DNA from: Cirrosporium novae-zelandiae
Lineage: Eukaryota
DNA: 64,000 bases
Direction of reading: 5' to 3'
NCBI GenBank assembly: GCA_026023565.1
Contig: JAPETS010000018.1
Location: 186,001 to 250,000 of the forward strand
The notes under the pieces are model-generated. The model saw only the letters and a program-made list of their open reading frames with translations, was not told the DNA's origin and ran no database searches. Made by a program: the position numbers and the translations under genes. Shown here one piece after another: positions 15,101-64,000 of this stretch; positions within the stretch are counted from its first letter, which is position 1; each line of letters opens with the position of its first letter.

Positions 15101-18100
15101 CCAGTTCAATAAGATTTGCAGGGCATTCGAACAAAGCGACTCCCGTGTCCAGTGGCTCCAAGAAGGTGGCTTATGGCCATGTATAACGCCAGTCACGCTT
15201 CTTGAGCAATTGCGATCTACATCATCCTCTATATTTGGAGACCGCATGAAGGAAAACCTTGTCATATACGCGTTGTCAATTACAGCTTTGCAACGTCTTA
15301 CGAGAATGAAGGACGCTCATCGGAAGAATGATACTCAAAAATTGGCGGAGGAACAAAAGAATGCAGGCCATAGAAATTGGAATCCGCTGAAATATCCGGA
15401 CTGGCTTCTCTTGGAGATTGATGCAAATATCTTGATTCGACCCGAGCAAGTCGATGTCGCACTCACAACTATTTCCCCAGCTTCTAGGTTAAATTCAGTC
15501 TTACAGATGAATATGGGACAAGGTAGGGATACAATGTTCCCTGTTATTCCTGAAATTCCCTTGAGACTTTGGTAGGTGTAGCTAACTCGAATCTCTGAAG
15601 GTAAAACATCTTGCATTATGCCAATGGCTGCTGCAGTCCTAGCAGACTCAAGTAAACTTCTCAGAGTCGTCATCCCTAAACCTTTACTATTACAGACGGC
15701 TCAATTGCTTCAGACTAGGCTTGGAGGTCTGCTCGGTCGTGAAGTGAGGCATATTCCGTTCTCGCGCAAGACTTCGACTAAGTCAGACATCATTAATGAG
15801 TTATACAATATTCATAGAACTGTTCTCGAATCTTCAGGGGTTATGCTGGCCCTTCCAGAACATATTCTGTCCTTCATGTTAAGTGGACTGCAAAGATTGT
15901 CAGATGCTCGAATCCCAGAGGCGAGCCAGATGGTTAAAGTCCAGTCCTGGATGAAAAGGGTATGTCGAGATATACTCGACGAGTGCGACATCACACTTGC
16001 TGTTCGAACACAACTGATATACCCATCTGGTTCGCAACAGACTGTGGACGGCCATCCTCATCGTTGGGAGATGGCTCAGGCTTTGCTATGGTTAGTAGAG
16101 GGTCATTTGTGGAATCTACAGCAAAAATTTCCTCAAAGTCTCGAGGTAGTCTCAAGGCCTGGTGGCGGGTTTCCAGTTGTTTTTTTTCTCCGCCAAGATG
16201 TTGAGGATGATTTAATCGCGCGACTAGTTAATGATGTTTGCAGTGGCCGGATATCAATCGTTCCGACAAGAGACTGCACGAAATCCGATCGCCTTGCTAT
16301 TGAACAATTTATTTCAGGAGCCAAGGTTCGACGAGGCATCATACAACGGATTGATAAGATGTTTCCTGACAAGCCTGCTGCAAGAAATTGCCTTTATTTA
16401 CTCCGAGGTTTATTAGTGCACCGCATACTACTTCTAGCTCTCAAAAAGCGTTGGAACGTGCAGTATGGACTAAACCCGGATCGCGACCCTATTGCTGTTC
16501 CATTTCATGCTAAAGGTGTCCCATCGGAGCAAGCGGAATGGGGCCATCCAGATGTAGCCATCCTCTTCACATGTCTTGCTTTCTACTATGGTGGTCTCAC
16601 TATTACTCAGATTCGTCAGAGTCTCGAGCATCTCTTAAAATCTGATGACCCATCAAGTGAGTACGATCGGTGGATACACAGCTCAGGGAGTCTTCCCGAC
16701 TCGTTGCGGGAATGGAACGCAATTAACGTTGATGATGGAACCCAGCTCATGGAAATTTGGAAACATGTTCGTTACAATGTGGTGGTGGTTGACTACTTCT
16801 TGAATAACTTTGTTTTCCCCAAGCACGCCAAACAGTTTCAAATAAAGTTGCAAGCATCTGGATGGGATATCCCACTCCTTCCACCTAGAAATCTATCTTT
16901 GGCGACGCCGGAGCATCCAAAGAGCATTGGTGGATACTCACAGGCACTGACTACAGGCTTTAGTGGAACCAACGACAACAAAACAATGCTACCACTGACT
17001 ATTAAGCAGGAAGATCTCTCTGGTCTTTCACATACGAATGCTGAAGTGTTGACTTACTTGCTACAGCACCGAAGTCGACAATATGTGCTAGCTGCGGACG
17101 AAGGTGGGAGGCGCCTATCTGAACTAGACTTACTTAAAAAGTTTAGCGAAATGAAAATCCGAATATTAATCGATGCTGGCGCCCAAATATTGGAGATGGA
17201 CAACTTAAGTCTTGTGAAAGCATGGCTTAGCGTGGACTATGAAGCTCCGGCTGCTGTTTTTTTTGACCCTGACAACAGGCCTTTTGTGCTTTATCGGCAT
17301 GGTCTTCAAATTCCGCTCGTAGCATCTCCCTTCGCTGAAAATTTGGCTGATTGTCTTGTATATCTCGACGAGGCCCACACTCGAGGCACGGATTTGAAAA
17401 TACCAATGAATGCCCGTGGAGCATTGACGTTAGGTCTGGGCCAGACCAAAGATCACACAGTTCAGGGTTCGTAGAAACATCGAGGTCCTTTTTGACTGAA
17501 TAGTAAACTGACATATGAACAGCCGCAATGAGAATGCGTCAACTAGCCACTTCGCAGTCTATTTCGTTCTTCGCCCCCCCAGAAGTTCATCAGAGCATTC
17601 TTGATCTTCGCAAGAAGAAGTCTGGTGATCTTATCAACTCGTATGATGTTATATGTTGGCTTCTAGAGCAGACGTGTAGCGGCATCGAACAGCTCCAGCC
17701 TTTGTACTATTCCCAAGGCGTAGACTTTTGCCGGCGCACGCAAGCTGCTTTAAGCAATCGCGATTTCCTTGTCGATAAAGATCAACGTAGTGTATACCTT
17801 GAGGATTTGCGACAAGCCGAACAGCAGACCCTAGAGCAGCTGTACAGGCCCAAGACAAAGGTGAAGCCGGCTAAAAGTATGGGGTCCCTGTCCCCAGAGC
17901 TAGCAACATATATGAAGGAACTCAACGTTCGGAGACAAGAGTTCCAAGATACTGGCAATGCGGTTCATGGCTCCGCACTACAAGAAGTGGAACAAGAAAG
18001 GGAGGTCGCGTATGAAGTTGAGGCTGTTCGTGAGGTGCAAAAACCAGTTCATTATCCACCCTTATCATTCCCGGGACTTCATAGGGACATTATCAGCTTT

Positions 18101-43501: not shown

Positions 43502-44467
43502 TTATAACTCGTTCTCTAGTTCCACTAGCTCGGCAAACTCCGCCTTCGTTGTCTCCATCCCTAGCTTCGAGGGGAACACGCAAGGTTTCCTTGGGGGCCC
43601 ACCATATCCATAGAACATCGCCAATGCGCATTTCACAGCCACAAAACCCCCTTTGATAGCAACCCAGTCACCTCTTGCAACGATGGCTTGTAGTTTCTGC
43701 GCCTCGGGAAGTTGGCCCTTGTTGTAGAGGTCCATAACCTGGATACATGCTTTTGGAGCCACATTTCCAATACCACCTATGATCCCATGGCCGCCAGCTA
43801 TCAACGTCGGGAGTGTGAAGTCTGCGGAGCCACCGAATGTTAAGAATCCCTGTGGGGCTCCAGCAGCGATGCGTGCAAGTTTTCCGGTATTACCGCATGT
43901 GAGCTTCACACCAACGATGTTAGGGTGTTCCGAGAGAGCTAGAATCTGATCGGAGTTGAGGTCTAGACCACCTGATGCACTAGGGAAGTTATAGATCAGA
44001 ATGGGAATAGGTGAGGTATCGGCGACGGTGCGGAAGTGGTCAAGGACCAAGTGAGATGTGAGGAGAGATCCATAATAGCTTGCTGGAAGGACAAGTGCAT
44101 ATGAGCCGCCAGATTGGTATGCCTCTTTGCACAGCTGGATTGTTTCTCTCGTGGACTGTGCACCACAACCAACAATCACGGGCATAGAGAAGTGATTTAC
44201 AGAGTCAAGGGCTTCTCGGGTAACTCTAGTGATGGTCATTCGTTCGTCATGGGAGAGATGTGCGGCTTCGCCGTTACTACCGTGGGTCACGATTCCGGAT
44301 ATGCCTGTCTGTGCAAGCCTTATAACATGTTCTTCGGTGGTGGACACATCCAGATCTTCGGATCCTGCTTCGAAAAAAGCAACAGTGGGGACGTAAAAAC
44401 CGGGCACTAGAGGTCTTGATGGGTAGTCACCATTAACAGTATCTGTGTATCCGTCTAAGCTAGCCAT
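43502..44467 (-). CDS. DHDPS-family 2-keto-3-deoxy sugar-acid aldolase (GaaC/Lga1-like)
   Basis: Motifs PGFYVPTVAFF, GSNGEAAHL, GCGAQSTRETI, IYNFP, GVKLTCGNTGKLARI (Schiff-base Lys) and GGSADF. Intronless, 321 aa. Confidence 0.92.
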   Translation of the reverse strand: MASLDGYTDTVNGDYPSRPLVPGFYVPTVAFFEAGSEDLDVSTTEEHVIRLAQTGISGIVTHGSNGEAAHLSHDERMTITRVTREALDSVNHFSMPVIVGCGAQSTRETIQLCKEAYQSGGSYALVLPASYYGSLLTSHLVLDHFRTVADTSPIPILIYNFPSASGGLDLNSDQILALSEHPNIVGVKLTCGNTGKLARIAAGAPQGFLTFGGSADFTLPTLIAGGHGIIGGIGNVAPKACIQVMDLYNKGQLPEAQKLQAIVARGDWVAIKGGFVAVKCALAMFYGYGGPPRKPCVFPSKLGMETTKAEFAELVELENEL

Positions 44468-45626
44468 TGCCAGAGACGATGAGCTTAACGATAAGGAGAA
44501 GTAAACAAGAGAAGAGAGTAAGCAATAGGGGACTTAAGTAGGGTGATTCAGGTGAGAGGTCGTATAGGCAGAAATTAAGTAATAGTAATGTTGTTATGGA
44601 TGAAAAAGAGTGACGAAGAGGAGGCGAGGGCTAAAACTATATAAATACCCGTAACAAATGACAGACTCATTGTCTTAGATACACTAGATATCTTCAAGAT
44701 ATTGATGGTAGATAGAGTATAATGATTATTCATTTTATTGTGCGCATGTCGCCTTCAGTAGTAAATAGAGTATAAACTATAGTCTTATTGCGCAATCCAA
44801 CTCCGTAAGTATAGGGTTTCATAGGGGACCAACGTTAGATCAATCTTGGTTTCTTAGTGAACTTCAAGAAACAATATTTCAATGCCAAATAGGGTGGAGT
44901 ATAAATGAAGGAGCAGGGCAATGAATCGTAGTCTGTTTAGGCTTCACCAAGTGTGGGGGTGGAGAAGATCGATTGACAGCGGGGGGTGTCGGAGTGTCGG
45001 AGTGTCGGCTTAAGGTTATTACCTTCTTCGGCCTCTATTAACGACTCCATCGATTACCTATTACAAGTACAAGGCAAAGTAATTGTGAAAGTACCACTAT
45101 TGTCACTCAAAGAGCCCCCCACGCTACCATCCCTAATAACCCCGCAATAATCCCCCCACGGCTTCAATGCAACTATATAATTACTACTTTTATCCTAAAT
45201 ACGTGACCGTGGGGGTTCCGATTTCCTTACTACAAGCTATAGCAAGCGGGGAAAGCATGGAGAACCGCGATGGGGTCGATATATTTGTATTAAATCGGAA
45301 TTCATGCAAAGAGCATCTCGGGACAGCTCCTTGAACTAAACCCATACTAGACAGAGCACCACCGACTTCGAAGGTGGGATGTGTGGGCGAAAAAGGAAGA
45401 CACTTGTCTCACCTATCCATGGCAGGAGACACTTGAGATTCTGAGATCTATTAAATAAGTTGTCTAATGGCCCCGCAGAATCGAAGGTGTGATCCAGTAT
45501 TCATCCACCAAGATTGATTCAAGTTCGATTCTTAATATCCGTTTCATTATTCCAGGCTATCTATTCTGCCAAACTAAAATCAATCTGATTTTCTTTTCCG
45601 TCTTTTTTAACTGAAAGGTCTACAAA
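44468..45626. promoter_or_regulatory. Bidirectional promoter of aldolase and dehydratase with a (GTGTCGGA)-type triple repeat and CreA-like SYGGRG sites
   Basis: GTGTCGGA-GTGTCGGA-GTGTCGGC at 44986-45009; several GTGGGG/GCGGGG/CCCCAC hexamers. Confidence 0.5.
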
Positions 45627-46879
45627 ATGACTAAGATCAAATCAATTGAATACTTTCGCGTCCGTCCACGGTGGCTGATGGTGAAAATCACCGATGAGGA
45701 TGGAGAGTACGGATGGGGAGAAGGAACCCTAGAAGGCCACACCCTAGCCGTTGAAGGGACGTTGGAGGAAATGACTACAAGGTTAATAGGCTACGAGGCA
45801 GAGTATACTTTCTCCCTTCTTCTTTCCATCCTAGGTCTTACTAATCTCTCCAAAGTAACATTGAACACATCTGGCAAACATTCTGGAGACAGGGATTCTA
45901 CCGAGGCGGTCCGGTTTTCATGTCTGCTCTATCCGGTATAGATATTGCTCTGTGGGACCTGAAGGGTCGAAAGCTTGGTGTTCCAATCCATCAACTTCTT
46001 GGAGGGAAGGTTCGGAATAAAGTTCAAGTCTACGGTTGGATTGGTGGAGATCGACCCAAGGATATCGAGGTGGAAGCGAAATCCCGTAAGGCCCAAGGGT
46101 TTACCACGATAAAAATGAATGCCACTGAAGATGTAAACTGGCTCGACTCACCTTCAATTCTCGATTCAACAGTCGAACGTCTCAAGGTGGTCAAGTCACT
46201 AGGCCTTGATGCTGGACTGGATTTCCATGGCCGCTTACACAAGCCTATGGCCAAACAGCTGGCGAAGGCGCTTGAACCCTATAGGCCCCTCTTCATCGAG
46301 GAGCCGATTCTGGTGGAACACCCTGCAGCACTGAAACAGCTGAGCGGGCTGACAAGCATTCCGATTGCACTGGGTGAGAGATTATATACAAGATGGGATG
46401 TCAAGCCGTTCCTGGAGCAAGGCTTGATAGACGTGCTGCAACCAGATATTGCGCACGCCGGTGGGATATCGGAGACCAAACGAATCGCTGCCATGGCAGA
46501 AGCATATGATATCGCCATTGCCCCTCACTGTCCTCTTGGCCCAGTCGCCCTTGCTGCAAGCATCCAAGTCGCAATGTCAATACCCAATTTCGTGATCCAG
46601 GAGATGAGCCTAGGTATGCACTATAATGTAGAAAAGACTCGTAGCGATTTGATCCTGGAGATGGGAGAAGGTATGCACTATGATGTAGAAGCGGCTGACC
46701 TGAATACTTATATTAAGGATCAGAGCGTGTTTGAGGTCAAGGATGGATACGTGGCTGGCCTGATGAAACCAGGCTTGGGAATTGATGTTGATGAGAAGAT
46801 GGTTAGGAGGAATGGGATGAAGGATCCGTGGCAGTGTAAGGAGTTTTTTGGGGCGGATGGCAGTATCAGGGAGTGGTAA
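45627..46879 (+). CDS. dgoD: D-galactonate dehydratase-like enzyme (DgoD, enolase superfamily, mandelate racemase subgroup)
   Basis: PRWLMVKI..GWGEGTLEG, intron 45803-45855, FYRGGPVFMSALSGIDIALWD, IKMNA, LDFHGR, FIEEP, GERL, QPDIAHAGGI, APHCPLGP, and terminal DGSIREW. Confidence 0.92.
46593..46690 (+). repeat. 57-bp-period tandem duplication inside the dehydratase CDS
   Basis: tgatccaggagatgagcctaggtatgcactataatgtagaa (46593) versus tgatcctggagatgggagaaggtatgcactatgatgtagaa (46650). Confidence 0.9.
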
Positions 46880-47256
46880 TATCTGTGCGATGGCGATTCG
46901 AATATGCACTATTATTATATACGGTAGAAAACAAACTTGAGGTAATTATTCATTCTCAAATGATCAATGAAAGAAAGAAATAAGAAAATGAATGCAATCG
47001 AACATTTGACAAATTCTAAATTGTTACAAAGCGCCATGATCAGATTAATTACTATGAATAAGGTGGATGAGGAGGAGGTAGAGATCCCATATTCTTTGCC
47101 CGGCGCTACACTATCTACTGCTTTTATATTTTGCAGCGCTTTATAACAGTTTTGGGGAGAATATATAGCCTCCCTAAGCCCCAAATAAGTCTCCTCGCAG
47201 CATCGACAAATCCATAACACACAGAAAGAAAATTAAATTAAGTCATAAATTATCCA

Positions 47257-48642
47257 TCATAGCTTAGATGAAGCGACACATGAAGAATCCTCCTCCCCGC
47301 CCAAGAGAACAAGACATTTCAACACCAGATTCCCATTCTCATCTTTCCCCTTCCCTGCTATATGAAACGCATCATTGACATTCTGCATCCCCCTAAATCG
47401 ATGCGTAATCATGGTTTTCAAATCCGGTAGCGGCCTTCCCTTATTTCCCTTTAACCCTTTATTACTCACGATCTCGATCGCAAGCGGATATGTATTGGCG
47501 TAGCGAAACACCCCTATAAGATCAACTTCTCGAAATGCGGCGGCGGAAACGGGGAGGATTTGAACTGGTGTTCCAGTTCCGATTATGAGAACGCGACCGC
47601 CGGGGCGAGTGGCCTATGTGTGTGTGGGTTGGAATCAACAAAGGACTAATTGAGCAAAGCAATTTCGTTCGAGAATACGAATTGGAATGTTTAATTTTTA
47701 TAGGGGAAAGGGGAATGGAATGGATGGATCTATCTTACATAAATAGCGGCTTGGAGGCATGCCTCGACACCGGTACACTCGAAGACGGCATCGAATTCGC
47801 CAATTTGTTTATCACCTCCCGCAATTGGGATGTTTCCGGCTAATGTGGCGGTTTCCTTTGCAATATTGAGGTTTTCTATTGTTGTGCTGCCGCGTTTTCG
47901 GGGTACGACGAACCCACGATCTGCGAAGCCATTCTTGACTGCAAAGTCTACACGACCTTCTTCGATGTCCGCGATTACGATTGTACTCGACCCGGTAACT
48001 TTCAATATTGCTGCGCAGAGGAGACCTACTGCCCCTGCGCCAAATATGAGGGTAATTGACTGAGGGTGCAGCTGTGCTCGCCTCATTGCTTGAATGGCTA
48101 CACCCATTGGCTCTAGCAACGCTCCTTCATCCAGCGAGACATTATCCGGGAGCTTGTAGCTCCATTTTGCAGGATGTATGATTCTTTCCTGCAGCGTGCC
48201 CTGAGCATGTGGAAACAACTTTGCAGCACTCCTAAATTGCATATCTTTACAGATATTATATCGGCCTTCCTCACAGCGTGCACAGGAACCGCATGGTTGT
48301 CCAACCTCTAGTGCAACCTTGTCGCCAATTTTAAAGTCATCCACAGAAGATCCAACGGCAGTAACGATGCCAGCAGATTCATGGCCGAGGACAAGCGGCT
48401 CGCGGACAAGGACGTCGCCGTTGGCATAGTGGCGATAGAAATGAAGGTCGGAGCCACAGATGCCTGTTGAGCGAATGGCTATTTCAAGATCATCGGGGCC
48501 AACAGCGCTGATCAGTCGAGACTCCTGTTTGGCTCAAATAATTTAGTTATTGTGGGATCAAAAAAGTCCTCTCGAAGCTCACGATTCTAAGATTCTCGGG
48601 CCCGTGAAGGACAGCTGCTTGAACACTACTACCAGTAGGCAT
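47257..48642 (-). CDS. Zn-dependent medium-chain polyol/sugar-acid dehydrogenase (sorbitol/xylitol/L-idonate 5-dehydrogenase family), 2 introns
   Basis: Motifs TGICGSDLHFY, LGHESAG, CGSCARCEEGRYNIC, GALLEP, FGAGAVGL, VFECTGVEAC and FRYANTYP. Confidence 0.92.
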
Positions 48643-49025
48643 TTTCAGACTAGAAAATTGAAATAGCAAGGATGTGAGGGTGTAGAAAACTGACCTAGTT
48701 TACTCCTAACAAAATTGTTAATTAATTAGTTATCTAGGTAGATAATTGAGGGTCTTCAAAGTGGGATGACAGGTTGAAAGCATTACAGGGAAGTGTGATG
48801 TGGAACGTGGGGGTTGGCTCGACACAATAAATTGCCGATTGCGAACAACACTCGGGACTTGGGCTGATATTGAGCGAGAAGCTCCACAGGGAAAAAGATA
48901 TCGGCAATGTATAAGAGAAGCCGACAGGATGATTAAACTACCAGCAGTAGATACACTGAGCTACTGTACCAATTCTAATTTTCATCTCTTTCTACTATCT
49001 GTGTTCCTTACCTTGATAGTGATCA

Positions 49026-49914
49026 ATGGCTTCTCTTCCAGAGCTATTCTCCCTTAAAGGGAAGAATGCTCTTGTTACTGGCGCAACTCGAGGCATTGGA
49101 GCTGAGATGGCAATAGCATTGGCGGAAGCTGGTGCTGATATCATGCTGGTTCAGGTATGAGAGCTCACAATAGCAAGAAGTCAAGCCTGATCTATGACAC
49201 TTGACAGAGGGATGAGAACAATACTTCAACAAAATCCAAAATAGAGGCGTTGGGGAGGAAGTCAGTCATCTACACATGTGATTTATGCTCAGCGGAGTCT
49301 GTCAAAGCCTTGACACCAAAAATCCTCAAGGATGGAAAGCAGATTGATATATTGCTAAATTGTGCTGGGATCCAGAGGCGACATCCCAGCCGTGTTTTCC
49401 CTGATGAAGATTGGAACGAGGTTCGCAATATCCCAGCATCATTGTCCAACATTTCTGATATCAGATGTAGGTTCTCCAAGTCAACCTCACAGCGGTATTT
49501 ACACTATGTCGTGACGTTGGAGCTTCAATGCTAGCGAGGGAACCAGATGGGTATGGGAGAAGAGGCAGTATCATTAACATAGCATCTCTGGCATCATTCC
49601 AAGGTTGTCTAACAGTTCCAGCATATGCAGCGGCAAAAGGGGGAGTTGCTCAACTGACTAAAGCGCTTTCCAATGAATGGGCATCCCAGGGGATATGCGT
49701 CAATGCAATTGCACCAGGGTATATAGCAACAGACATGAACGAAGCATTGATTGCGGATAAGGAACGAGCGGCTAGCATCCTAGCAAGAATACCAGCAGGA
49801 AGATGGGGCACACCAATGGATTTTAAAGGGCCGGCAGTATATCTAGCAAGTCGAGCAAGCAGTTATGTTTCTGGGGAGATTTTAACTGTCGATGGAGGAT
49901 GGATGGGTCGGTAG
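49026..49914 (+). CDS. KduD/IdnO-like SDR (2-deoxy-D-gluconate 3-dehydrogenase / gluconate 5-dehydrogenase family), 2 introns
   Basis: Motifs [56 protein letters not shown] and VDGGWMGR. Confidence 0.92.
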
Positions 49915-52145: not shown

Positions 52146-53028
52146 GCGTGTTGTGAGATGAAAGGAATAAATTAGGAAGGGAAGTTGAATGGATGTATAT
52201 GAGGAGATGATGAGTGTGAAGACCTGGCGATAGGTCTGTACTGGTTTAGGCTTAAAAGAATCAATTAATACACAATATCTTGATATCTAGGATATACTGT
52301 GTGTGAACCCCGTGATAGAATCATCTTTACTTCTCCAGGATATATGTTAGTTAAATGTTATTTGGAAGAGAGGTGGTCTGACATCTAGACTGAGGTAAAT
52401 GATAAAATAATATCTTTATGTCAATGCCTCAGGCCTCCTCGGCCTCGCCCCAAGCGGATAGTCGGCAACAGGGTTAAGCAACAATAGCAACTTCGGCCTT
52501 AGTCAACAACCGAATCTAAACCCCATTAATACAACTGGATATCAATATTCAGCTTTCATCACTCCATCCACTCCTCATACCAATCTTCAGTCCTCGTTTA
52601 GATGCCCTTAGCTGGGAGACATGTAGCGTTAGTTATTCCAGAAATGGCATCTTGTGCAACTATCAAATCATGTTTGAACTAAAAACATTGCCGTCTAGGT
52701 CCTCTCTCAATTCCTATGGTTTCACCTTTCCAAATCCTATCCGCATGGGTGACGCTACCTTTGGTGATCAATTCAAGGTAATCCTACAATAGTATGGCAT
52801 CATGATTCAACAGTACCAATACCACTTGTTTTTAGTGATTCTGCTCTCTTTGAATGTTATTGGTAGCTGCATTTCTCTCCACAGCTCCAAGCTCCATAGA
52901 CCACCATGAATAATTTTTATACAAAAAGCCCCATTCCCTTCCTTTTCCTCTTATTTCCTTCTTCTCAGTCACTCCTTTGCATAATACTTTATTTTTTTCC
53001 ATTACTATATAACCTCTAGCTTTTCTCA

Positions 53029-54791
53029 ATGGCCGCACAAGCCCAGGGGAGCACCATCTCAGATTCTGAACTTGGTTCAACGAATCAAGATCAAAACGGT
53101 TCGAATTCAGACCTTGAGATGGCAGAGAAAATAGTTTCTCAGCTAGATATCATACCATCCCCACCTAAAGAAATCGATGCCGACCACCAACTAACCGAAT
53201 GGAGTGGTCCCGATGACCCAGACCATCCATACAATTGGTCTTTCAAACTGAAAATATGGATTAGCATCCTTCTAGCCATTATAACAATCTCAATCGGACT
53301 TTCAAGCAGCATACTCAGTAGTGGCACTGCACAAATCGCCAGCGAGTTCAACATCAGTACCGAGATTACTATTCTAGGAACGAGTCTCTTCTTGCTTGTA
53401 CGTGCGGGCATCCGTATCCTTCTCCCAGCGTGTACTATATACCAGTTACTAACAGACTAAATCAGGGGTTTGTGATTGGTAACTTCCCCCTAACTGCATG
53501 CATATCAGATTCCTCCCCCAATCAACTCACATAAAAAAAATAGGACCTGCGTTTTGGGGTCCCATGAGCGAAAAGATTGGACGCCGATACCCCATTATTG
53601 GTGGCCAAATGGTAGCCTCTATTTTCTGCATCATGGTGGCAGAAGCCAAGAACCCCGCAACTCTCATCGTCGGCCGATTCCTCAGTGGCGTCTTTGGAGC
53701 AGCACCAATAACCATCGTTGGAGGTGCAGTAGCAGATATTTGGAATGCGCTCGATCGTGGAATCGCTCTAGGCGGTGTGGTGGGGATGATTTGGGGTGGG
53801 CCTATTCTCGGTCCCATCATAGGAAACTTTGTCACAGAGAGCTATCTTGGGTGGAGATGGACGATGTGGTTAATGGCCATTTTTGGTGGATCTGTCTCGA
53901 TTATATCTTTTATGAGACTTCCAGAGACCTATGCTCCAATAGTCCTGTCGAAAAAGGCTAGAAGAATTAGGAAGGAGACTGGGAATCCAAACATCAGAAG
54001 CCTATGGGATGAGGAAGAGACCAATTTAGCCATAATTGTTCAAGTCTACCTTGTCCGCCCTTGGGGTACGTCTAAGCCAACCACACACACACACAAGATA
54101 ACCAAACACTAACCCACCCCACTCCCCATCATCAGTCCTCCTCTTCACAGAACCAATCCTAGTCTTCGTCACCGTATACCAAGCCTTCATCTATGGCACC
54201 TGCTACCTCTTCTTCATCGCCTACCCCATCCAATTCCACCAAAACCTCAACTGGCCCCTCGGCCTCTCCTCCCTCCCCTTCCTCGCCATGCTCCTCGGAG
54301 TCCTCCTCGGCACCACCACAATAATTTTCCACACCAAACTTGTCTTCGTGCCCAAAACAATCCAAAACAACAACGTCGTCATCCCGGAACACCGTCTGCC
54401 CTTAATGATCCTAGGCAGCTTCCTCATCCCCCTAGGCCTCTTCTGGTTTGCCTGGACCTCTAACCCAGGGATCCCCTGGCCCGCCGTCGTATTCGCTGGC
54501 GTCCCCATCGGTGCGGGCATGTACATCGTGTTTATCCAGTGTTTCTCCTACGTCATCGACGTCTACCTGCGCATGGCCAGCAGCTCCCTCGCCGTCATGA
54601 GCATCGTCCGAAGTCTCTTCGGCGTTGCGTTCCCACTGTTTGGAACATATATGTATGAGGCACTCGGTGTGGCCTGGGCTACGAGCCTGTTGGGCTTTCT
54701 TAGTGCCCTTATGGTGCCTGTTCCTATTATCTTCTATTTGTATGGACATACTATTCGTATGTGGTCGAAACGTAACTTGAATACGGTATAG
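53029..54791 (+). CDS. MFS drug:H+ antiporter, DHA1 (Tpo1/Flr1-like)
   Basis: Motifs WSGPDDPDHPYNW, GPMSEKIGRR, GRFLSGVFG, GPILGPIIG, LGWRW, PETYAP, PEHRL and LGVAWATSLLGF. Three introns, with a 13-nt microexon at 53466-53478. Confidence 0.93.
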
Positions 54792-55500: not shown

Positions 55501-55870
55501 CTAGGTATGTGTCCGCTTGGGTGGTGGCAGATAGGATTGGATAGGATAGGATAGGATATATCCCACGTTTGTTTTTTTTTTGGTTTGGTTTGGTTGGGTA
55601 GGTAAGTAAGTATAAGTGTTTGGCTTGTCTTTTTAATATTGGGTCCTCCTGACCCCGACCCCGACTCCCCTAGTATGTATTGTATATATATGTTTCAAAG
55701 GGAGAGAGAGGGAGGGAGAGAGAAAGCGTAGTAACTAACAACCAACCAAGCAAATAATCGATATTGGAATTATTTATCCCCGAGACCCCGTCTCCCATCC
55801 ATCCATCCGTCCATCACATCAAAATCGATATAATCCCCTTCCCTTCCCTATAGGTATATATATAGATCAC
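55290..55870. repeat. Cluster of simple-sequence repeats
   Basis: G15 at 55422-55436 and (AAC)10 at 55470-55499, plus (GGATA)n, (CATC)n, (TACA)n and (GA)n tracts. Confidence 0.85.
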
Positions 55871-58571
55871 GGATGAGCACCATCCCACGGCTCTAAATCC
55901 TCCAACATAGCATCCCCAAACACGCTATCCCAAACATGTGGTTGAATGAGCGTTCTAGGGTTATAGATATCGTCCAAATGAAGCGCGGGATCAGCGTTTT
56001 CGAATAGGAAGTCTGAGGGGTTGGGAAGGTGGGGTTGTATGGTCGCGGTAGTAGTGGTCGCGGTGCTGGTGATGATGTTCATTTCATCGGAATTGAATTC
56101 CAGTTCTGGGATGGGAGGGGGGGTGGACTGTTTTGTTGCGGGGGGGCTGGCGATTGTGGGGAATAAGGCTGGTGGGGATGGGTTTTGGTGTGGGGGGGAG
56201 GAACCGAGGGGGTTTCCTGGAAGTGGTTGTGGTGGCTGTTGCTGTTGTTGCTGATCTAAGTTTGATAGAGTGTGAGATCCCCCCTCTTCGGCGTTGTGGA
56301 TGATGGAGGCGATGTTTGTGTACCACATCAAGACACGATAGATTCTCGAGCAGTACGAGTCAGGACGCTTTGAGTCTACAACTAGACCAAGCGCATTGGT
56401 GATGGATCTGAGGAGCTCGAGATCCGAGGACCGACTGGGCTCAGAGGAGCTTAGGAAGTCATCGAGTAATTGGTAGAATGCGACGATAGAATAATTGCGG
56501 AAAAGCCTTTGTGAGAGCAGTTAGTGATTTAGCTAATGTGTGAACAATAGGGCTATCATATAATAGTAATAATTAGGTGGTTTGAGAACTGAACTGACCA
56601 TTCGAGTGCCTGGATCCCTCCGGCGTTGAAATAACTCCCACGTAGAAGCTGGATAATTCTTATGGCGGCACGAGCATCAGCCAAGCTTCGCTGGTTGCAA
56701 CTTGAGTAGGCACCGCAGCGATGGACTAAAACATTTACGACGTGGAAAATATATCTAAGCTGAAGGCTCACTATCATGTACGCTCCAGATATTCTAGACC
56801 CTTCCAGGATTGTATGATATGTCGACCACCAAGCGTCCATCTTACCGGAAAGGCGCCTAATATTCTCTTGCTGCTGGGGCCCTGTTTTTTTTATTGCTCT
56901 GGAGGAATATAAATCGTGGTACACCTCCTCCATGACGCACGCCATTGAGACGCTCGCGCGAATGTGTTCTGGATCTTGTGCTGCAACTGAAGGGCAAAGT
57001 CGGATGTCACTCTCGAAAAGATAGAGCTGGCAGGGAATTCCCCCAATCAAGGAACGTTGTTTATCCATAGCAAACAGAGCCCAGAATAGGTTCCTGCGTT
57101 CCGTCTTCTCCTGAGTCGAAGCAGTCGTGGAGATGTAGGCCTCTTGTAATCCCATGGATTTAGCGACCTGGCAAGCCCGACAGAATACTGGCTCGAAAAC
57201 CTTCAGAGGGAAGCAGTCACGCGCAATGAGAGCCTGGCGATTCGTTAGTCGAATCTTTCTTCATTTAAATACCAGAAAATAGTTAAAATATTCTACGGGC
57301 TGGCAGCAAAAATGAAGATAGCTTGACAGATGGGTCTTCACAAAGATGCGGTCTCAATACTTCTACTTTCAACTCTAGAGTTTTAGAGCCTATGGGGAGC
57401 GGACTTACCAATGATGTCAAAGCCTGAACATTAACAAAGCGAGGTCTTGAAATGTCATCCAACTTCTGAAGAGCTCGCTTGCAGTTATCAAAAAGGCTCG
57501 TAAGGGTTTCATAGTCCACACTGGATGGAGAATACGAACAGTCTTGAATCAGCCTTGGTCTGCGAGTCATGGTTAGTAGAATGATATTGTTAAAGCATAA
57601 ACACCATGCCTCATCCCGCTGTACGCCTAACGCGTATTGCTGTTCAATGGCTTTCAAGAAAGTCTCTTTCTGAAAGATAGGAGGCTCCAAAGACACTCCA
57701 TCACAGTAGAGGTCCAATGAAGTATAGAGGAGACTATGAGGAGGTAGAAGTAAGGGCATTCCATCACTAGTCAGATCAATTTCTCGATAAGGTCCAGGAT
57801 ATGGACAATATAGATACCCCCGCTTAACCTCATCCAGGATGGATGGCCTTTTTGCAATTAAAGAAGCCAACCGTAGGGAGCGTGGATGTGGAGGAATTAA
57901 TGGCGATGCCACATTTGGATATTGATAAGAGAGGTCCAAAATAAATCTCTCGACGGTAATCTTGGCGCTGTTGAAAAGAGAAAGTGTTGAACATGCACCA
58001 TAGAATCGTTCATCACCGTTTTCATCCACAACTATATGTGGCGTGCTCTTCAGTAGAGGCTGTTGGGGATCTGAGAATGCATTGGATCTATTCTCAATGC
58101 TATCATTCTGAGACGTTAGGGGTCTAGGTGTTAGTTCCGTCAAAGGTTCTTTGGGAGTGAGATCAGTCCTGATAGATGTCGAAATCATAGCTGTCAACGC
58201 ATCCATCCGCTCTGCCATGCTCAACATGGCATTATCGATATGTCCAAGTCTTGAACTCAGATCCGCAAAGTCATCGACTCTGATCAGGTACAAATTAGTA
58301 TTATGATTAGCTATAGGAACAGGAATATAACCGACAGCTGTTTGGCTACATTTGGCCTCTTTCCTCGATTTGAGAAATCGCAGGCCACATGTGCCTTTTT
58401 GCAATTGGAGCATTCTGGATATTGACGATCGCAACGTACTTTTCTGATACGGCATTGGTCGCATGCCGGCATGTTAGTCGAGCCGGGTGTTGTTGTTACA
58501 GTTGTGGTGTTTGTGGTTGTCGATTGCCGAGTGTCTACAGCGGCGGCATCTTGCCGTGCCAGCTCGTTCAT
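55867..58571 (-). CDS. Zn(II)2Cys6 transcription factor with Fungal_trans domain
   Basis: Motifs ACDQCRIRKVRCDRQYPECSNCKKAHVACDF, ERFYGACS, FVNVQAL, ACQVAKSMGL and ERRNLFWALFAMDK; Pro/Gln-rich acidic C-terminus; several introns. Confidence 0.92.
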
Positions 58572-58916
58572 CTTGCCTTGATATCAAAGAAGGAATCAAA
58601 TCAATTATTTTACTGGAATTATTTTATTAAAATACCAGACTGAGTGATTATAAAGTGCGTTATACCATAATGAATGCAAAGTCCATTGCAAAGTTTGTTT
58701 GCGGACACAGCGGGGCTTACATATTACCTGAATAATTTGAAGCTACCGAGCCCCGACAGGAACCTGACCTAGAATATGAACTATCTTGATAATAAAAAGA
58801 CTTGCAGCGTTCTGTTGGTCTGCTAAAATAATGTGTGGCTAGTATTGGTATCATCATGTCATCTAGTATTAATAAGATAGGCGTCTCTTGCTTTCGAGAG
58901 ATCACTCAAATGCCTA

Positions 58917-61900
58917 TCAACCTTCCGTATCGCCGTGGTCTCGCATATTCGCCACATCAAAGTCTTCGCCACTCCATCCGTGTCTACGCCTGGGCCCTTG
59001 CGCTCTGTCCATTATCAACTCATTACCATTTTCTCCAGTGTATCTGATTCCCACCGTTTTCTCTCGTTTATCCTTCTTTTCCCCAAAGTTGTGCAAGCGC
59101 TCCCCAATTAAATAAACTTCGTCTCTGATCTTGGCTCTCCATTTACCCATTTGGACGCCAACCATGTACACGCTCCAGAATGTACCAGCTAATGCCATCA
59201 CGATAGGATATGCATACCTAAACATCTTCGCCTGATCATCTGTGTCTGCGTTCACACCAGCATAGATATAATTGAGTGCCCAGCCTACAGGTAGCGGTAT
59301 CAGAGTGCCCACCAGAGCTAGGGCCACCGCAGGGAGGAAAAACCCTTTCGTTGCAAGCAATGCATCTGGTTTTAATATTCCGTCTCTGAAGATGGCTCTC
59401 AACGCGGTTGCAGGCCTGGAATTTGTATCCCATAGAATTAATCTGGTGGCTGTTTTCACGTAGAGCACGCCAAGAGTCCAATCCTGAATAAAGTGAACAA
59501 TGTGGCGGTCTGAGCTGCCGGCGAAATATGTGTGTAGGGGAATCACGATGTAGAGTTCCATAAGCAAGGCAAAAAGGGAAGGGAGGAAGAATGCAAAGGC
59601 ACTGTAGGTGTAGATGAAGGTGAGGATAAAGCCAAGAGATTTGCGGATATGGACAAGACTCTGGGTGAGAGAGTGGGATCTTGTGGATAGGTAGCGCTGG
59701 GCAACGCCAAATAACTTGTAGGCGTAGAAGAGGATATAACCAATGGTACCGAGGACAGAGATTCCAGTCGAGAAGGAGTAAATGTCACTAATTTGATAAT
59801 TTGGCAACAGAGTAGTGAAAATCCTACGGCCAAGCATTAGAGGGAAAAGGGTTGCAAAAACACCCGTTGCTGCTGCAAAGAGCCAGATGAACACAGCGAA
59901 AAGGCTAACTCGTAATCGAAAACGAGGCGGAATATAGACTTTAGTAAACTTGTCGGATTTGGAACCATGGAGACCGTCTTCCGAGTCAGGTTGGTCATCG
60001 ATTCTCTTATTATCCTCAGTTACTTCCAGAAATACTCGGTGGCCTTTTGGAATCCGGACTTGATCTGATGCAGGAGCCCGGACAAATACTCCATCTTTGA
60101 TGATGATGTTGTTCATGTTGTTCAAGTCCTCTGAGTTTGAACCTGGTTCGTAGCCAGCCACAACGCGGGTATCATGTTTCCAAAATAATATGTACTTCCA
60201 GGTGCGATTCACAACCCGGCCTTCCTCATCCGTCTTTCGATCCCCGAAAAGAAAATCTGTCAATCGCAACGCCCTCGCCACCTTGTGAAACCACCAATCA
60301 TACATAGACTGAAGCCAAGTCGAGGGCCTGATGAAGCGAACCGCCAAGGGCATAAGGAAATTATAAAAGAGTAAATCTATCGGGAATTCCAGAACAGGTT
60401 CATTTGAGGACCAGTGTATGGGCAAAACACCATCAAATGTACATGATATGCCCCATACCACCCCTCCGAGGCATACAAGTACCAAGGCACCATATACCAA
60501 GGCGCTAAAAGTAATCTTTCGCAACTGGGTTGAGATGCTCCGTTCAAGGACATCTCGAACGGGATGGAAAGTTGGATCATCAGGGTCCCGAATGAAATAT
60601 AAAACTCCGCTTCGAAGGATTTTCCGGCACATCGAAACGAATAATGCAAAATGGAACATATAGCAGGTACCCACGAACCAATGTATAAATAAAGAAGTCA
60701 TGGGGGACTCATAGGTAAACTGTATCCTAGTCCAAAAAGTGGCGTTTGCAAAAAGAGGTAACAAGGCGATATCCAAAAGCACACCACAGTAAAGGGGGAA
60801 TACAATCATCTCAATGCCAATTATCAAGATAACCTTCATAACCCCACCTGCTTGTCGCAAAAGATCGGCAAGTGCCCCTTCTACTCTGCCACCATCACGA
60901 GTAGGTGAGAAAATATTTCCTACTTTTAAGTAAATTGCCCCGAGAAAGGAGAACAAAGCATAACCTAGAAGGACTGCAATTATCCGGTCTTTCGTGTTCC
61001 AGTAAGCAAGGTCTAGGTTGGTCCCTGGGATTTTAGTAGAGTTGCCAATAGAGCCGCTGGAAGATGCTCGTTCAGGAGAAAAGAGATCCAAGAACGAGTT
61101 TAATATCCAAGTTTCGATAAAACGGGCACAATCGCTAATATACTTTGGTGATAGGAAAGTGAGAGTGCTGCCCAAAGAGTTCAACTGGAGCTTTTCCCAG
61201 TGTAGGGCACTGATAACACTCGTAGGCATTGCGAAAATCATCGAAATACTATTCCAAAGCTGTGTTTCAACCCTTAGTAACGATTCATGGGATATTATTG
61301 AAAATGCCCGAAATCCGGATTTAGAAAAATCTCGACCAATTGCGATAGCTGTATCAGTCAATCGGTCTAATCCCCCCGAGGCCACCGTCATTGAAAGATT
61401 GCCCAAGGACTCGTTAAGGGCGTACTTATTCATGATTGGAAACACCATTGCCAGTAGAGTGGCGAGAAGACGGAAACTTCGATCTACCCAATAGATGCAG
61501 GATCCAAAAACAAAAAGGCACCCGTCGACAATTACGTCAGCCATTCCTTGAATGAGGTGGAGTGGGGCCATCACAAGGAGTACAAGGGGATCAGCAAGGA
61601 AAAGTAGGACAATCTTGCCCCATATATACGGTAGCCAGATACCCATTGCAACTGTCATGGAGATGAGCACTACACTGAATATGACATTCTGTAGGAGGCC
61701 AAGTATCGGGCCTTGCAGGCCTATTAATTCCATTATTCCTTCCAGGTCCTCTACGTCTTCCACATCCCCGTCATTCTGATTGGCGTTACCGTCTCCACGA
61801 AGAGCAAGGGCCTCATCTTGGATTGGGGCAGGCTCAACATCGTCCAGGTCAATCGGAAGCTGTTGCGGTCGCATATCACGGACAACAGGTACAAATGGGG

Positions 61901-64000
61901 CCTCGGCTTCGATATTGTGTACAATATGAGCATCATCCCCATCCGGGTCTGCATTTTCGCGGTCTGGGGCATCAAAACCTCCCCAAAGCCAATCCTTTAT
62001 CTTCTCAAGAGATCCACGATCATCACGAGGCGCAATCTCAGCTTGAGGTTCTTCTCGTCGGGTAGGGGAAGCATCTGTATTTGGAGACTGATTTAGAGAG
62101 GCATTAACCACTTCATCCCTCTCTTCTTCGAGCCCGGCGTCGGTCTCCAACTCACTGGGGTTGTCGGTGCGAAAAGAATTTAAGTTAGGGGGGGAGCTAG
62201 GACCGCTGTCAAAATCCATGTCCGTCTGTGCTTGTGCATCACGGGTTCCATAATGCTGAAGAGGGGAGGTTTGAGGTTCACTCAAAGAATCAGATTCTGC
62301 TGGCCAGGAAAAACTTTCGTTTCCGCTGACCCAAGAGGGAGTTTGAGTGTGACCAGCAGTACTCTGAGGGGCTCCAATAAAAGGTGATAGGTTTTCCAGG
62401 GATGGTTGATATTGTTCATAGTTAGAACCCATATCAGGTTCGGATTCTTTGCCCACACGATCATCTCGAGGAATCTCGGTTTGTGGGAAATTTTCCTCCC
62501 AGCTTGTATTACTTCCATCACTCTGAAGTTCAGCCCCGGGTTGGACATTACTAGGAGGTTGCATGAGAATTTTCACTTCTTGGTTCCCAGCAGCTCTTTG
62601 TTCTTCCTCGATCGCCCGGCGAAGAGCATTTACTTCCGCAATAGCATCTCTAGCTGGCATACTAGGTCGGTGTAAAGATGCCTCCTCTCCGCTCGAAGGC
62701 TGTGGGTTGCTTGGTTGGCCTTCTTCAAAGATAGACGCAGGGTGTGCAGATGATGCTGAGTCTGACTCAAGAAATGGTAGTGCAATCTGTTGGTCCTCGT
62801 GCCGACTCTCAGACGAACTGGATTGATCGTCTTCGTATGGCCAGGGATTGAAAGCCGAGTCAGGATTGGGATCGGCGAAAGGGTTACGATTCAATTCATC
62901 CACCGCATTTAATCCCATTTCTTCGGCCTCATTAGCATGTTCTTCATGGCCGTCACGATTCTCAGCAACGTCTGGGACTCTTTCTTCAGGAACCGGTTCA
63001 TTAACATCATCCATCGCAGCACCAGCTCCCACATTCAATGCAGGTTGTTGTTGAACCACCCATTCACGTATTAGAAAAATGATAATGAAAGCAACAACAA
63101 CAGCTAATGTAATCAACTGGCCTTCGAGTGTGTCGATAACAGCTTGATTGAACTTGGAAGAAGGGGTTAACTCCTTCAAAAGTCGAACTTCGGAAAGCCA
63201 GGTTGAGCCCTGTGCCATGGGCGGTTGGCTGGGATCGTTTACATTAAAAGAAAATGATGTCGTCGTCGCTTCTTTCGAATGGGAAACGTTGACTTTGAAA
63301 CCCCTTTCGGCTTTAGATAGAACTGAAGAAATTGCTCTCGAGATGTCTAGTATCCAAGCAGATGCTCCTGGCTCCATGGCGCTGGAGGTCCCGTTCATCC
63401 CAGGTGTAGTTCCATTTACAATGAGATTGGTCATACGCCCTTCTTCTGTTGCATGAGGATCCAACCCTCCATCGGCCATCCAAAATAGGAATTTCCATAT
63501 ATGCCGCATGGAGTATGGGAGGAGGCATAGCCAGACAAAGGCAACAAGAAGATACCGAGACCAAGTAGTAACAGCATGAAATGATTGTATGACGGCTTGC
63601 TTAAGAAATATCGGCATGGGAACGGATTGGGGCATGTCAGGCCGATAAACTAAATCACCAAGTCAGCGCATAGCACTTCAAGTAGAGTCGATATCACGCA
63701 CGCTTGGTAAACCTGAATCTCGTTTTGCACAGCTCGCAATATTTCTTCTGTGAATGTGCAAGCCATTCCATTAAACTAGAGTAATCCACGTCAGTATCCA
63801 GCCAGGGCGATATTCCCAATGGGGTTTAATCATACCAGCTCTGATGAACAAATTTAATGCTCCCACTGCATTTACAGGGGTAAAAGAGAGGCTCTTCCAG
63901 CGAGCCTTCCCCACGACATATACGACATGTATCTGGTTCTTCCATACTCTTTGCCCCTCGTGAACTCAGTGCGTTATCAATTATTCTCCTATCTTCGTCT
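58917..64000 (-). CDS. DOA10: ERAD E3 ubiquitin ligase Doa10/Ssm4/MARCH6; start possibly beyond the window edge
   Basis: [49 protein letters not shown], plus [26 protein letters not shown] and [14 protein letters not shown]; many TM segments. Confidence 0.95.

Follow-up and report, generated by a model that had tools for sequence, protein, structure and literature searches.

A conserved dehydratase-aldolase gene pair of Pezizomycotina, beside a divergent dehydrogenase pair in Cirrosporium novae-zelandiae, yields a candidate aldolase for an unassigned step of sugar-acid catabolism

Four consecutive genes of Cirrosporium novae-zelandiae, for an aldolase, a dehydratase, a zinc-dependent medium-chain dehydrogenase/reductase (MDR) and a short-chain dehydrogenase/reductase (SDR), lie at positions 43502 to 49914 of a 64,000-nucleotide stretch of its genome (GenBank assembly GCA_026023565.1, contig JAPETS010000018.1, positions 186,001 to 250,000 of the forward strand; hereafter the window). 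Do they encode a single kinase-free sugar-acid pathway, as the original prediction proposed, or two units that adjoin? Our preferred answer, which we hold with slightly better than even confidence, is that they are two divergent gene pairs that have evolved separately and stand side by side here, the first being a galactonate-type dehydratase-aldolase unit. What is new is this conserved dehydratase-aldolase pair, which names a candidate for an unassigned step, along with the MDR-SDR pair that accompanies it in one lineage.

Read against its open frames, the sequence yields a single-exon aldolase of 321 residues, a dehydratase of 399 residues (exons 45627-45802 and 45856-46879), an MDR of 400 residues (exons 48583-48642, 47739-48524 and 47257-47613 on the minus strand), and an SDR of 261 residues (exons 49026-49154, 49208-49420 and 49471-49914). 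The DNA of the window is fungal, its introns being short and its G+C content 41-49%. Two of its genes are identical to deposited C. novae-zelandiae metagenome-assembled genome proteins (M1834_002378 and M1834_002379); in length, the dehydratase and MDR models agree with the deposited P0121 and P0241, and P0001 equals our model of the aldolase. Pfam assigns the four products to DHDPS, MR_MLE_N plus MR_MLE_C, ADH_N plus ADH_zinc_N, and adh_short, respectively. The aldolase and dehydratase genes (pair 1) diverge with 1159 bp between their ATG codons, the MDR and SDR genes (pair 2) with 383 bp, and the dehydratase and MDR genes meet tail to tail across 377 bp. The coordinates, the two head-to-head orientations and all four family assignments are as originally predicted. 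The absence of a kinase also holds: Pfam finds no kinase domain in 36 long open reading frames (ORFs) across the whole window, nor in 20 additional ORF pieces at 41.2-43.7, 46.9-47.2, 49.9-53.5 and 57.3-58.6 kb.

The second exon of the dehydratase alone (340 of 399 residues) scores 440.6 bits on the NCBIfam galactonate dehydratase equivalog NF010624, passing the cut-off of 311, and the runner-up model, an archaeal bifunctional gluconate/galactonate dehydratase, gives 218 bits, below its cut-off of 750. The top solved structure is PDB 3rr1, a putative D-galactonate dehydratase (1.8e-99). Orthologs with 70-77% identity occur throughout Pezizomycotina, the A. niger counterpart being An04g02760 (71% over exon 2). 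Residues D181, H183, E207, E208, E233, H283 and E308 (window numbering), the enolase-superfamily metal ligands and acid-base residues, which we take to correspond to those of E. coli DgoD, are invariant across 10 aligned fungal dehydratases. The sugar acid dehydratases of A. niger are reportedly the subject of Motter et al. 2014. That study is cited in PMC8113861 and PMC6353982. In the Aspergillus literature, dgdA and dgdB are listed as D-galactonate dehydratases of A. niger, one of them having been employed as such in a published study. Gene identifiers conflict between sources: in the text of PMC5674754 the deleted lraC is NRRL3_10522 and lraA is NRRL3_08837, PMC6231085 has LraC as NRRL3_01495 and LraA as NRRL3_01494, and the supplement of PMC9781776 has NRRL3_10522 as dgdA. 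The window gene also contains a 57-nt tandem duplication that adds 16-17 residues (…KTRSDLILEMGEGMHYD…), an insertion that is lacking in 9/9 aligned orthologs. Because GT opens the first copy and AG closes the repeat unit, this element could be an unspliced in-frame intron; it could also be a recent duplication or an assembly artifact.

The aldolase belongs to the dihydrodipicolinate synthase family, scoring 141.3 bits on PF00701 against a gathering cut-off of 22.1. Its translation carries GSNGE, VGVK and the SYY tyrosine, which we take to be functional motifs, VGVK presumably contributing the Schiff-base lysine and SYY the catalytic tyrosine. Its best 120 homologs are 60-70% identical, those with names being from Pezizomycotina, and are annotated as dihydrodipicolinate synthase family proteins or 4-hydroxy-2-oxoglutarate aldolases. 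The closest solved structures are 3qfe, an uncharacterized Coccidioides protein, followed by human HOGA1. The A. niger match among these 120 is An16g07700 / NRRL3_06731 (66% identity), and the D-galacturonate-type aldolase GaaC (An02g07720 / NRRL3_05649) is absent from them. The predicted "GaaC-like" label is therefore valid for the family only and not for orthology, and both GaaC and the L-rhamnose-pathway aldolase LkaA (An15g04230 / NRRL3_03899) are ruled out as orthologs in favor of An16g07700. In the supplement of PMC5674754, NRRL3_06731 appears as the candidate "lraD3", with expression on glucose and a 3.9-fold higher level on rhamnose.

The evidence that joins the two enzymes is their gene order in other fungi. 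Judged from the accession numbers and locus tags of the listed homologs, the pair 1 orthologs neighbor each other directly or with one gene between them in 9/15 placeable assemblies, the window included. They are adjacent in Oculimacula yallundae (VTL71DRAFT_150/151), Dothideomycetes sp. NU459 (g4209/g4210), Coniosporium apollinis (EON64708/EON64707) and Aspergillus californicus (KAL3471414/KAL3471415), and have one gene between them in Taxawa tesnikishii, Pseudogymnoascus sp. 24MN13, P. verrucosus and Pseudogymnoascus sp. VKM F-103, so that the linkage spans Leotiomycetes, Dothideomycetes and Eurotiomycetes. Since adjacency recurs in other fungi, the arrangement is not due to chance, and its retention across three classes is an argument for the product of the dehydratase being the substrate of the aldolase. 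The dehydratase-to-aldolase step of the original prediction is thus borne out by conserved synteny. The joint occurrence of both pairs, by comparison, was seen only in the window. A single protein-coding gene separates the orthologs in Pseudogymnoascus (VE04_04503..04507, V499_01738..01740 and VE01_04406..04410) and Taxawa (H2203_001127..001129), and this intervening gene could be a further member of the pathway.

For pair 1, we infer a short series of reactions. The dehydratase would remove water from D-galactonate, or from a sugar acid of the same C2/C3 configuration, to yield a 2-keto-3-deoxy acid, with which the aldolase would form a lysine Schiff base and which it would cleave to pyruvate and D-glyceraldehyde; in the non-phosphorylative De Ley-Doudoroff route of fungi, the pair would make up the lower half, which needs no kinase. 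The substrate could instead be L-arabinonate or D-fuconate, in a Dahms-type kinase-free route for a pentose or deoxyhexose, as both acids share the C2-C4 configuration of D-galactonate, sequence does not discriminate among the three, and the aldolase orthogroup has no characterized substrate. We nevertheless give this alternative a small probability: the equivalog that the dehydratase passes is the D-galactonate model, the A. niger homologs are listed as D-galactonate dehydratases, and Pfam detects no sugar 1-dehydrogenase or lactonase beside the pair among the window ORFs.

A kinase-free Aspergillus route from D-galactonate through 2-keto-3-deoxy-D-galactonate (KDGal) to pyruvate and D-glyceraldehyde is described biochemically in PMC11219438, PMC6231085 and PMC9781776, and two of these papers present Aspergillus models in which no aldolase gene is tied to the cleavage of KDGal or of 2-keto-3-deoxy-D-gluconate (KDG). 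With this De Ley-Doudoroff route (dgdA/dgdB), pair 1 shares the dehydratase family and the predicted kinase-free chemistry; A. niger, however, has no assigned aldolase gene and its orthologs are unlinked, whereas the two genes are linked here and in eight other assemblies. We therefore regard the aldolase as a candidate for the step that lacks an assigned gene in the A. niger models. The gene family has been noticed before, without a link to the dehydratase, since "NRRL3_06731_like" is listed among the homology groups for D-gluconate catabolism in a figure legend of PMC6231085. Our literature search found NRRL3_06731 only in PMC5674754 and PMC6231085, and returned neither An16g07700 nor An04g02760, nor a description of a fungal D-galactonate aldolase-dehydratase gene cluster. 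The kinase-free fungal chemistry of gluconate and galactonate had already been described; only the gene assignment would be new.

More generally, kinase-free sugar-acid routes in small fungal clusters are already known (L-rhamnose LRA, gaaA-gaaC and gluD-gluE), and the chemistry that we propose here goes back to decades-old enzyme work. The LRA cluster for L-rhamnose in Scheffersomyces stipitis and A. niger resembles the locus in grouping an SDR, an enolase-superfamily dehydratase, a DHDPS-family aldolase and a Zn2Cys6 regulator with no kinase. It differs in containing a lactonase, of which there is none here, and in that the window aldolase is not the LkaA ortholog and the window dehydratase has An04g02760 as its best match in A. 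niger, LraC being listed under another NRRL3 number (NRRL3_01495). In the gaaA-gaaC / GaaB system, too, a DHDPS-family aldolase acts after a dehydratase, pyruvate and glyceraldehyde are formed without a kinase and two of the genes diverge, but the window dehydratase is of the DgoD type rather than an L-galactonate dehydratase like GaaB, and the window aldolase is not orthologous to GaaC.

A metagenome scan with the aldolase gave 80 loci, the best six being 54-56% identical. Beside these six, tblastn with the window proteins found no dehydratase, MDR or SDR, and Pfam on 25 ORFs of four of the loci (L001, L002, L004 and L005) found the aldolase alone. The sole locus of the 80 with a second cluster member is a 3.7-kb contig (L020), in which about 2.2 kb separate an aldolase relative (37% identical) from a KduD-like SDR on the opposite strand that has 59.6% identity across 94 residues and is truncated at the end of the contig.

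The first enzyme of pair 2, labelled a zinc polyol dehydrogenase in the original prediction, was there given an IdnD-type step on L-idonate in one candidate route; its scores speak for the polyol type rather than for IdnD. The MDR carries GHE and the zinc motif C-x2-C-x2-C-x7-C, and its best structural matches are xylitol dehydrogenase 7y9p (3e-46), ketose reductase 1e3j, L-arabinitol dehydrogenase 3m6i and sorbitol dehydrogenases, with 161-142 bits, as opposed to 96 bits (2e-26) for the E. coli-type L-idonate 5-dehydrogenase IdnD (6dkh). Exon 2 (258 of 400 residues) scores 133.6 bits on the IdnD equivalog NF007375, under the cut-off of 469, and 139 on a threonine dehydrogenase model. The best 120 homologs (62-70% identical) come mainly from Dothideomycetes and lichen-forming fungi, with no Aspergillus proteins among them. 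When the longest contig per 90% cluster was compared, the MDR was on a different contig from the dehydratase or aldolase in 6/6 comparable species (Zalaria obscura, Neofusicoccum ribis, N. parvum, Diplodia corticola, Lasiodiplodia hormozganensis and Aureobasidium melanogenum), and its placement beside pair 1 is therefore, as far as we have seen, particular to C. novae-zelandiae. By its scores, the enzyme is polyol-dehydrogenase-like, and the co-localization expected in other fungi is found for the aldolase and dehydratase but not for the MDR.

The SDR has the Ser and Y-x3-K motifs and resembles KduD. With exons scored apart, it gives 197.4 bits (exon 3) and 44.6 bits (exon 2) on the KduD model TIGR01832, a sum of 242 bits against a cut-off of 338.85, to which the 43 residues of exon 1 contributed no score under the E-value limit applied. 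The IdnO/gluconate 5-dehydrogenase model NF005983 ranks below the KduD models, with 123.8 (exon 3) and 38.5 bits (exon 2), and its cut-off of 408 is not reached. The best structures are PDB 4hp8 and 4z9y. Bacterial relatives match exon 3 with 61-68% identity, and the full-length protein is 58-62.5% identical to those from Bacillota and 66.7% identical to an Ophidiomyces protein. An exhaustive search of representatives returned 272 relatives at E <= 1e-30. Fungal relatives include proteins of Ophidiomyces, Blastomyces, Mycena and Melampsora annotated as "2-deoxy-D-gluconate 3-dehydrogenase", as well as proteins of Loxospora and Rhizina; GluF is not among the relatives looked up by cluster.

Bacterial gene neighborhoods bear on what such an SDR does beside an MDR. 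In 23 of the 80 loci closest to SDR exon 3 in a bacterial genome scan, an MDR lies directly upstream of the SDR relative and in the same orientation, and in many of them its stop codon overlaps the start codon that follows. Where the neighbors were scanned, in 18 MDR-linked loci, we find an enolase-superfamily dehydratase in 7, a D-2-hydroxyacid dehydrogenase in 6, a GntR/FCD regulator in 9, TRAP, MFS or GntP transporters in several, and a PfkB kinase in 2. The two 2-hydroxyacid dehydrogenases that were scored (L093 and L112) resemble GhrB or glyoxylate reductase, and operons combining a 2-hydroxyacid dehydrogenase, an MDR and a KduD-like SDR occur in Bacillota and an Arthrobacter (L093, L112, L114, L146 and L159; also L091). 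The operon dehydratases are of ManD-like or talarate/galactarate-like subgroups and not DgoD, and a DHDPS-like aldolase is near the SDR relative in 1/80 loci. Wichelecki et al. 2014 reportedly described L-gulonate and L-idonate routes and the neighborhoods of ManD-subgroup dehydratases. Five of six MDR-linked bacterial SDRs score 303-332 bits on the KduD model, below the cut-off of 338.85, and one scores 345, so some of these proteins may bear the name KduD in a gene context that points to the reduction of keto-aldonates. For annotation, this matters in that many KduD-scoring proteins sit in operons of a GhrB-like reductase, an MDR and an SDR, where keto-aldonate reduction is likelier than formation of pectin-derived KDG.

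By analogy with these MDR-SDR operons, pair 2 would most likely oxidize and re-reduce a secondary alcohol of a hexonate or 2-keto-3-deoxy-hexonate, acting as an epimerizing or keto-acid-reducing module. The enzyme families of the GhrB-like reductase/MDR/SDR operons are the same as those of A. niger GluC/GluD, GluE and GluF, which convert 2-keto-L-gulonate to L-idonate, 5-keto-D-gluconate and D-gluconate; because of this match, an oxidize-and-re-reduce role on hexonates is supported, if indirectly. The predicted epimerizing pair thus gains from the bacterial MDR upstream in 23/80 loci and loses in that its own MDR is not IdnD-like. Compared with the bacterial operons for L-idonate and related acid sugars (including E. 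coli idnD/idnO), the locus has in common an MDR and a KduD/IdnO-like SDR, which in bacteria are often joined by a dehydratase or GhrB-like reductase, acid-sugar transporters and GntR regulators. It differs in the sequence of the MDR and in its DgoD-type dehydratase, and PfkB-type kinases are present in 2/18 of the bacterial loci.

We also placed the SDR in an unrooted maximum-likelihood tree of 87 proteins, obtained by a quick search. The smallest well-supported set containing the window SDR (Shimodaira-Hasegawa-like approximate likelihood ratio test, SH-aLRT, 100) comprises 34 of the 87 rows: 12 MDR-linked, 1 KduI-linked, 5 fungal, 4 unlabelled metagenome and 12 label-free. Rows linked to KduI or to GH88 fall almost wholly on the opposite side of the tree.

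Several observations weigh against our preferred reading of two pairs with a galactonate-type pair 1. Pair 1 is unlinked in 6/15 assemblies, namely those of A. niger, A. tubingensis, A. brasiliensis, A. neoniger, A. sclerotioniger and one fragmented Pseudogymnoascus assembly, the A. niger genes being An16g07700 for the aldolase and An04g02760 for the dehydratase. Deletion of the A. niger aldolase ortholog, assayed on L-rhamnose only, had no effect, and the substrate of the orthogroup is uncharacterized. By sequence, the closest characterized relative of the aldolase is human 4-hydroxy-2-oxoglutarate aldolase; a role in hydroxyproline or 4-hydroxy-2-oxoglutarate metabolism, which database names suggest, was set aside because the conserved partner scores 440 bits as a galactonate dehydratase versus 46 bits as a hydroxyproline dehydratase. 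For pair 2, the bacterial MDRs share no more than 28-36% identity with the window MDR and are therefore analogs rather than orthologs. In the SDR tree, which is unrooted and from a quick search, context labels track bacterial phyla, making it suggestive and not decisive. Finally, the SDR relative adjoins KduI (20) or GH88 (12) in 32/80 bacterial loci, which is the classical KduD context; these counts are from the flanking ORFs of 55 of the 57 non-MDR loci, leaving out L099 and L160, which are without a gene model.

This last observation bears on the possibility that the SDR is a true KduD, forming KDG from the 2,5-diketo-3-deoxygluconate of lyase-made unsaturated uronates and passing it unphosphorylated to the aldolase, with the dehydratase supplying that aldolase from galactonate as well and the MDR as an unrelated neighbor. 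We know of no description of the fate of unsaturated uronates in fungi. The KduD models are indeed the top NCBIfam matches of the SDR, and its full-length sequence is about 57% identical to KduI-linked proteins. Even so, this account seems improbable to us, given that Pfam on the ORFs reveals no KduI-like gene in the window, that the window SDR belongs to a clade in which KduI linkage is rare (1/34 rows), and that the summed score of exons 2 and 3 stays below the KduD cut-off, with 43 residues of exon 1 unscored. In a review, KduI and KduD are described as bacterial enzymes only.

There remains the proposal that prompted the question, in which all four genes form one ATP-free pathway, the dehydratase converting D-gluconate to KDG and the aldolase cleaving KDG to pyruvate and D-glyceraldehyde, or the D-galactonate analog of these steps. 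A feed of pair 2 products into pair 1, like the substrates and directions of the individual reactions, is something we infer. The genes are contiguous with no kinase domain nearby, and D-gluconate has the same C2/C3 configuration as D-galactonate. The bacterial SDR relatives with an MDR are accompanied by an enolase-superfamily dehydratase (7/18) or a GhrB-like reductase (6/18), and the dehydratase does match the archaeal bifunctional model at 218 bits. An alternative D-gluconate pathway was once reported for A. niger, in a single old report according to a review. Yet we consider this one-pathway proposal unlikely: the MDR orthologs are on other contigs in all six fungi, the MDR is nearer to polyol dehydrogenases than to IdnD, the bifunctional model falls far short of its cut-off where the galactonate model is passed, and the dehydratases of the analogous bacterial operons are ManD-like or talarate/galactarate-like rather than DgoD.

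The comparison with the A. niger glu pathway points in the same direction. There, an MDR (GluE) oxidizes L-idonate, an SDR (GluF) reduces 5-keto-D-gluconate, and gluD and gluE share a bidirectional promoter. The clustered partner of GluE, however, is GluD, a 2-hydroxyacid dehydrogenase and not an SDR; moreover, the pathway is reported to terminate in phosphorylation of gluconate, the GluF product. In the most specific form of the one-pathway proposal, the four genes would carry the end of the D-glucuronate pathway, from L-idonate through 5-keto-D-gluconate to D-gluconate, and continue by way of a gluconate-active DgoD-type dehydratase and a new KDG/KDGal aldolase to pyruvate and glyceraldehyde, which we judge to be a shade less likely still.

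Under our preferred reading, the An16g07700 / NRRL3_06731 orthogroup is a direct candidate for the aldolase gap in genome-scale models of sugar metabolism in fungi, Aspergillus among them. If this is correct, a gap would be closed in the fungal catabolism of D-galactose, D-galactonate and possibly D-gluconate, and pair 1 would be a kinase-free two-enzyme module that takes sugar acids to pyruvate and glyceraldehyde. Should the four-gene route prove true instead, it would provide the genetic basis for the breakdown of gluconate without phosphorylation that biochemical work on Aspergillus described decades ago, with no genes assigned to it.

Table 1. Features of the locus and its neighbors, in window coordinates
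Feature	Position	Strand	Basis
DHDPS-family class I (Schiff-base) aldolase	43502..44467	-	PF00701 141 bits; A. niger ortholog An16g07700 / NRRL3_06731
Bidirectional promoter region, aldolase/dehydratase	44468..45626	.	Three tandem GTGTCGG(A/C) units at 44986-45009
DgoD-type (D-)galactonate dehydratase, enolase superfamily	45627..46879	+	NF010624 440.6 bits
57-nt in-frame tandem duplication within dehydratase	46600..46713	+	Sequence and alignment
Zinc-dependent MDR dehydrogenase, polyol-dehydrogenase type	47257..48642	-	ADH_N, ADH_zinc_N; structure matches
Bidirectional promoter region, MDR/SDR, 383 bp	48643..49025	.	Sequence
KduD-like short-chain dehydrogenase/reductase	49026..49914	+	TIGR01832 per-exon scores; PDB 4hp8, 4z9y
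MFS_1 transporter gene, 3.1 kb past SDR	53020..54788	+	PF07690 on two ORF pieces
Zn2Cys6 / Fungal_trans transcription factor gene, 6 kb past SDR	55870..58583	-	PF04082 and PF00172 Zn_clus

Direct repeats containing CGG are typical of Zn2Cys6 binding sites, and the tandem GTGTCGG(A/C) units between the aldolase and dehydratase genes form a putative site of this kind (Table 1). GTGTCGG occurs three times on the plus strand of the 64-kb window, all within these units, and twice on the minus strand elsewhere. A Gal4-like CGG-N11-CCG site was not found at 43-59 kb. The two bidirectional promoters share two 10-mers where about one is expected by chance, and hence there is no evidence for a shared regulatory motif; nor did a comparison that included the region upstream of the MFS gene reveal one beyond chance. 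The MFS_1 and Zn2Cys6 / Fungal_trans genes downstream of the SDR might be the transporter and regulator of the cluster, or unrelated neighbors. Farther out, the window holds a very long frame on the plus strand (9588-17471; two pieces of 1995 and 630 codons) with DUF6606, DUF3638 and DUF3645, and a 1581-codon ORF on the minus strand (58920-63662) with a MARCHF6-like C-terminal domain, as in Doa10-type E3 ubiquitin ligases.

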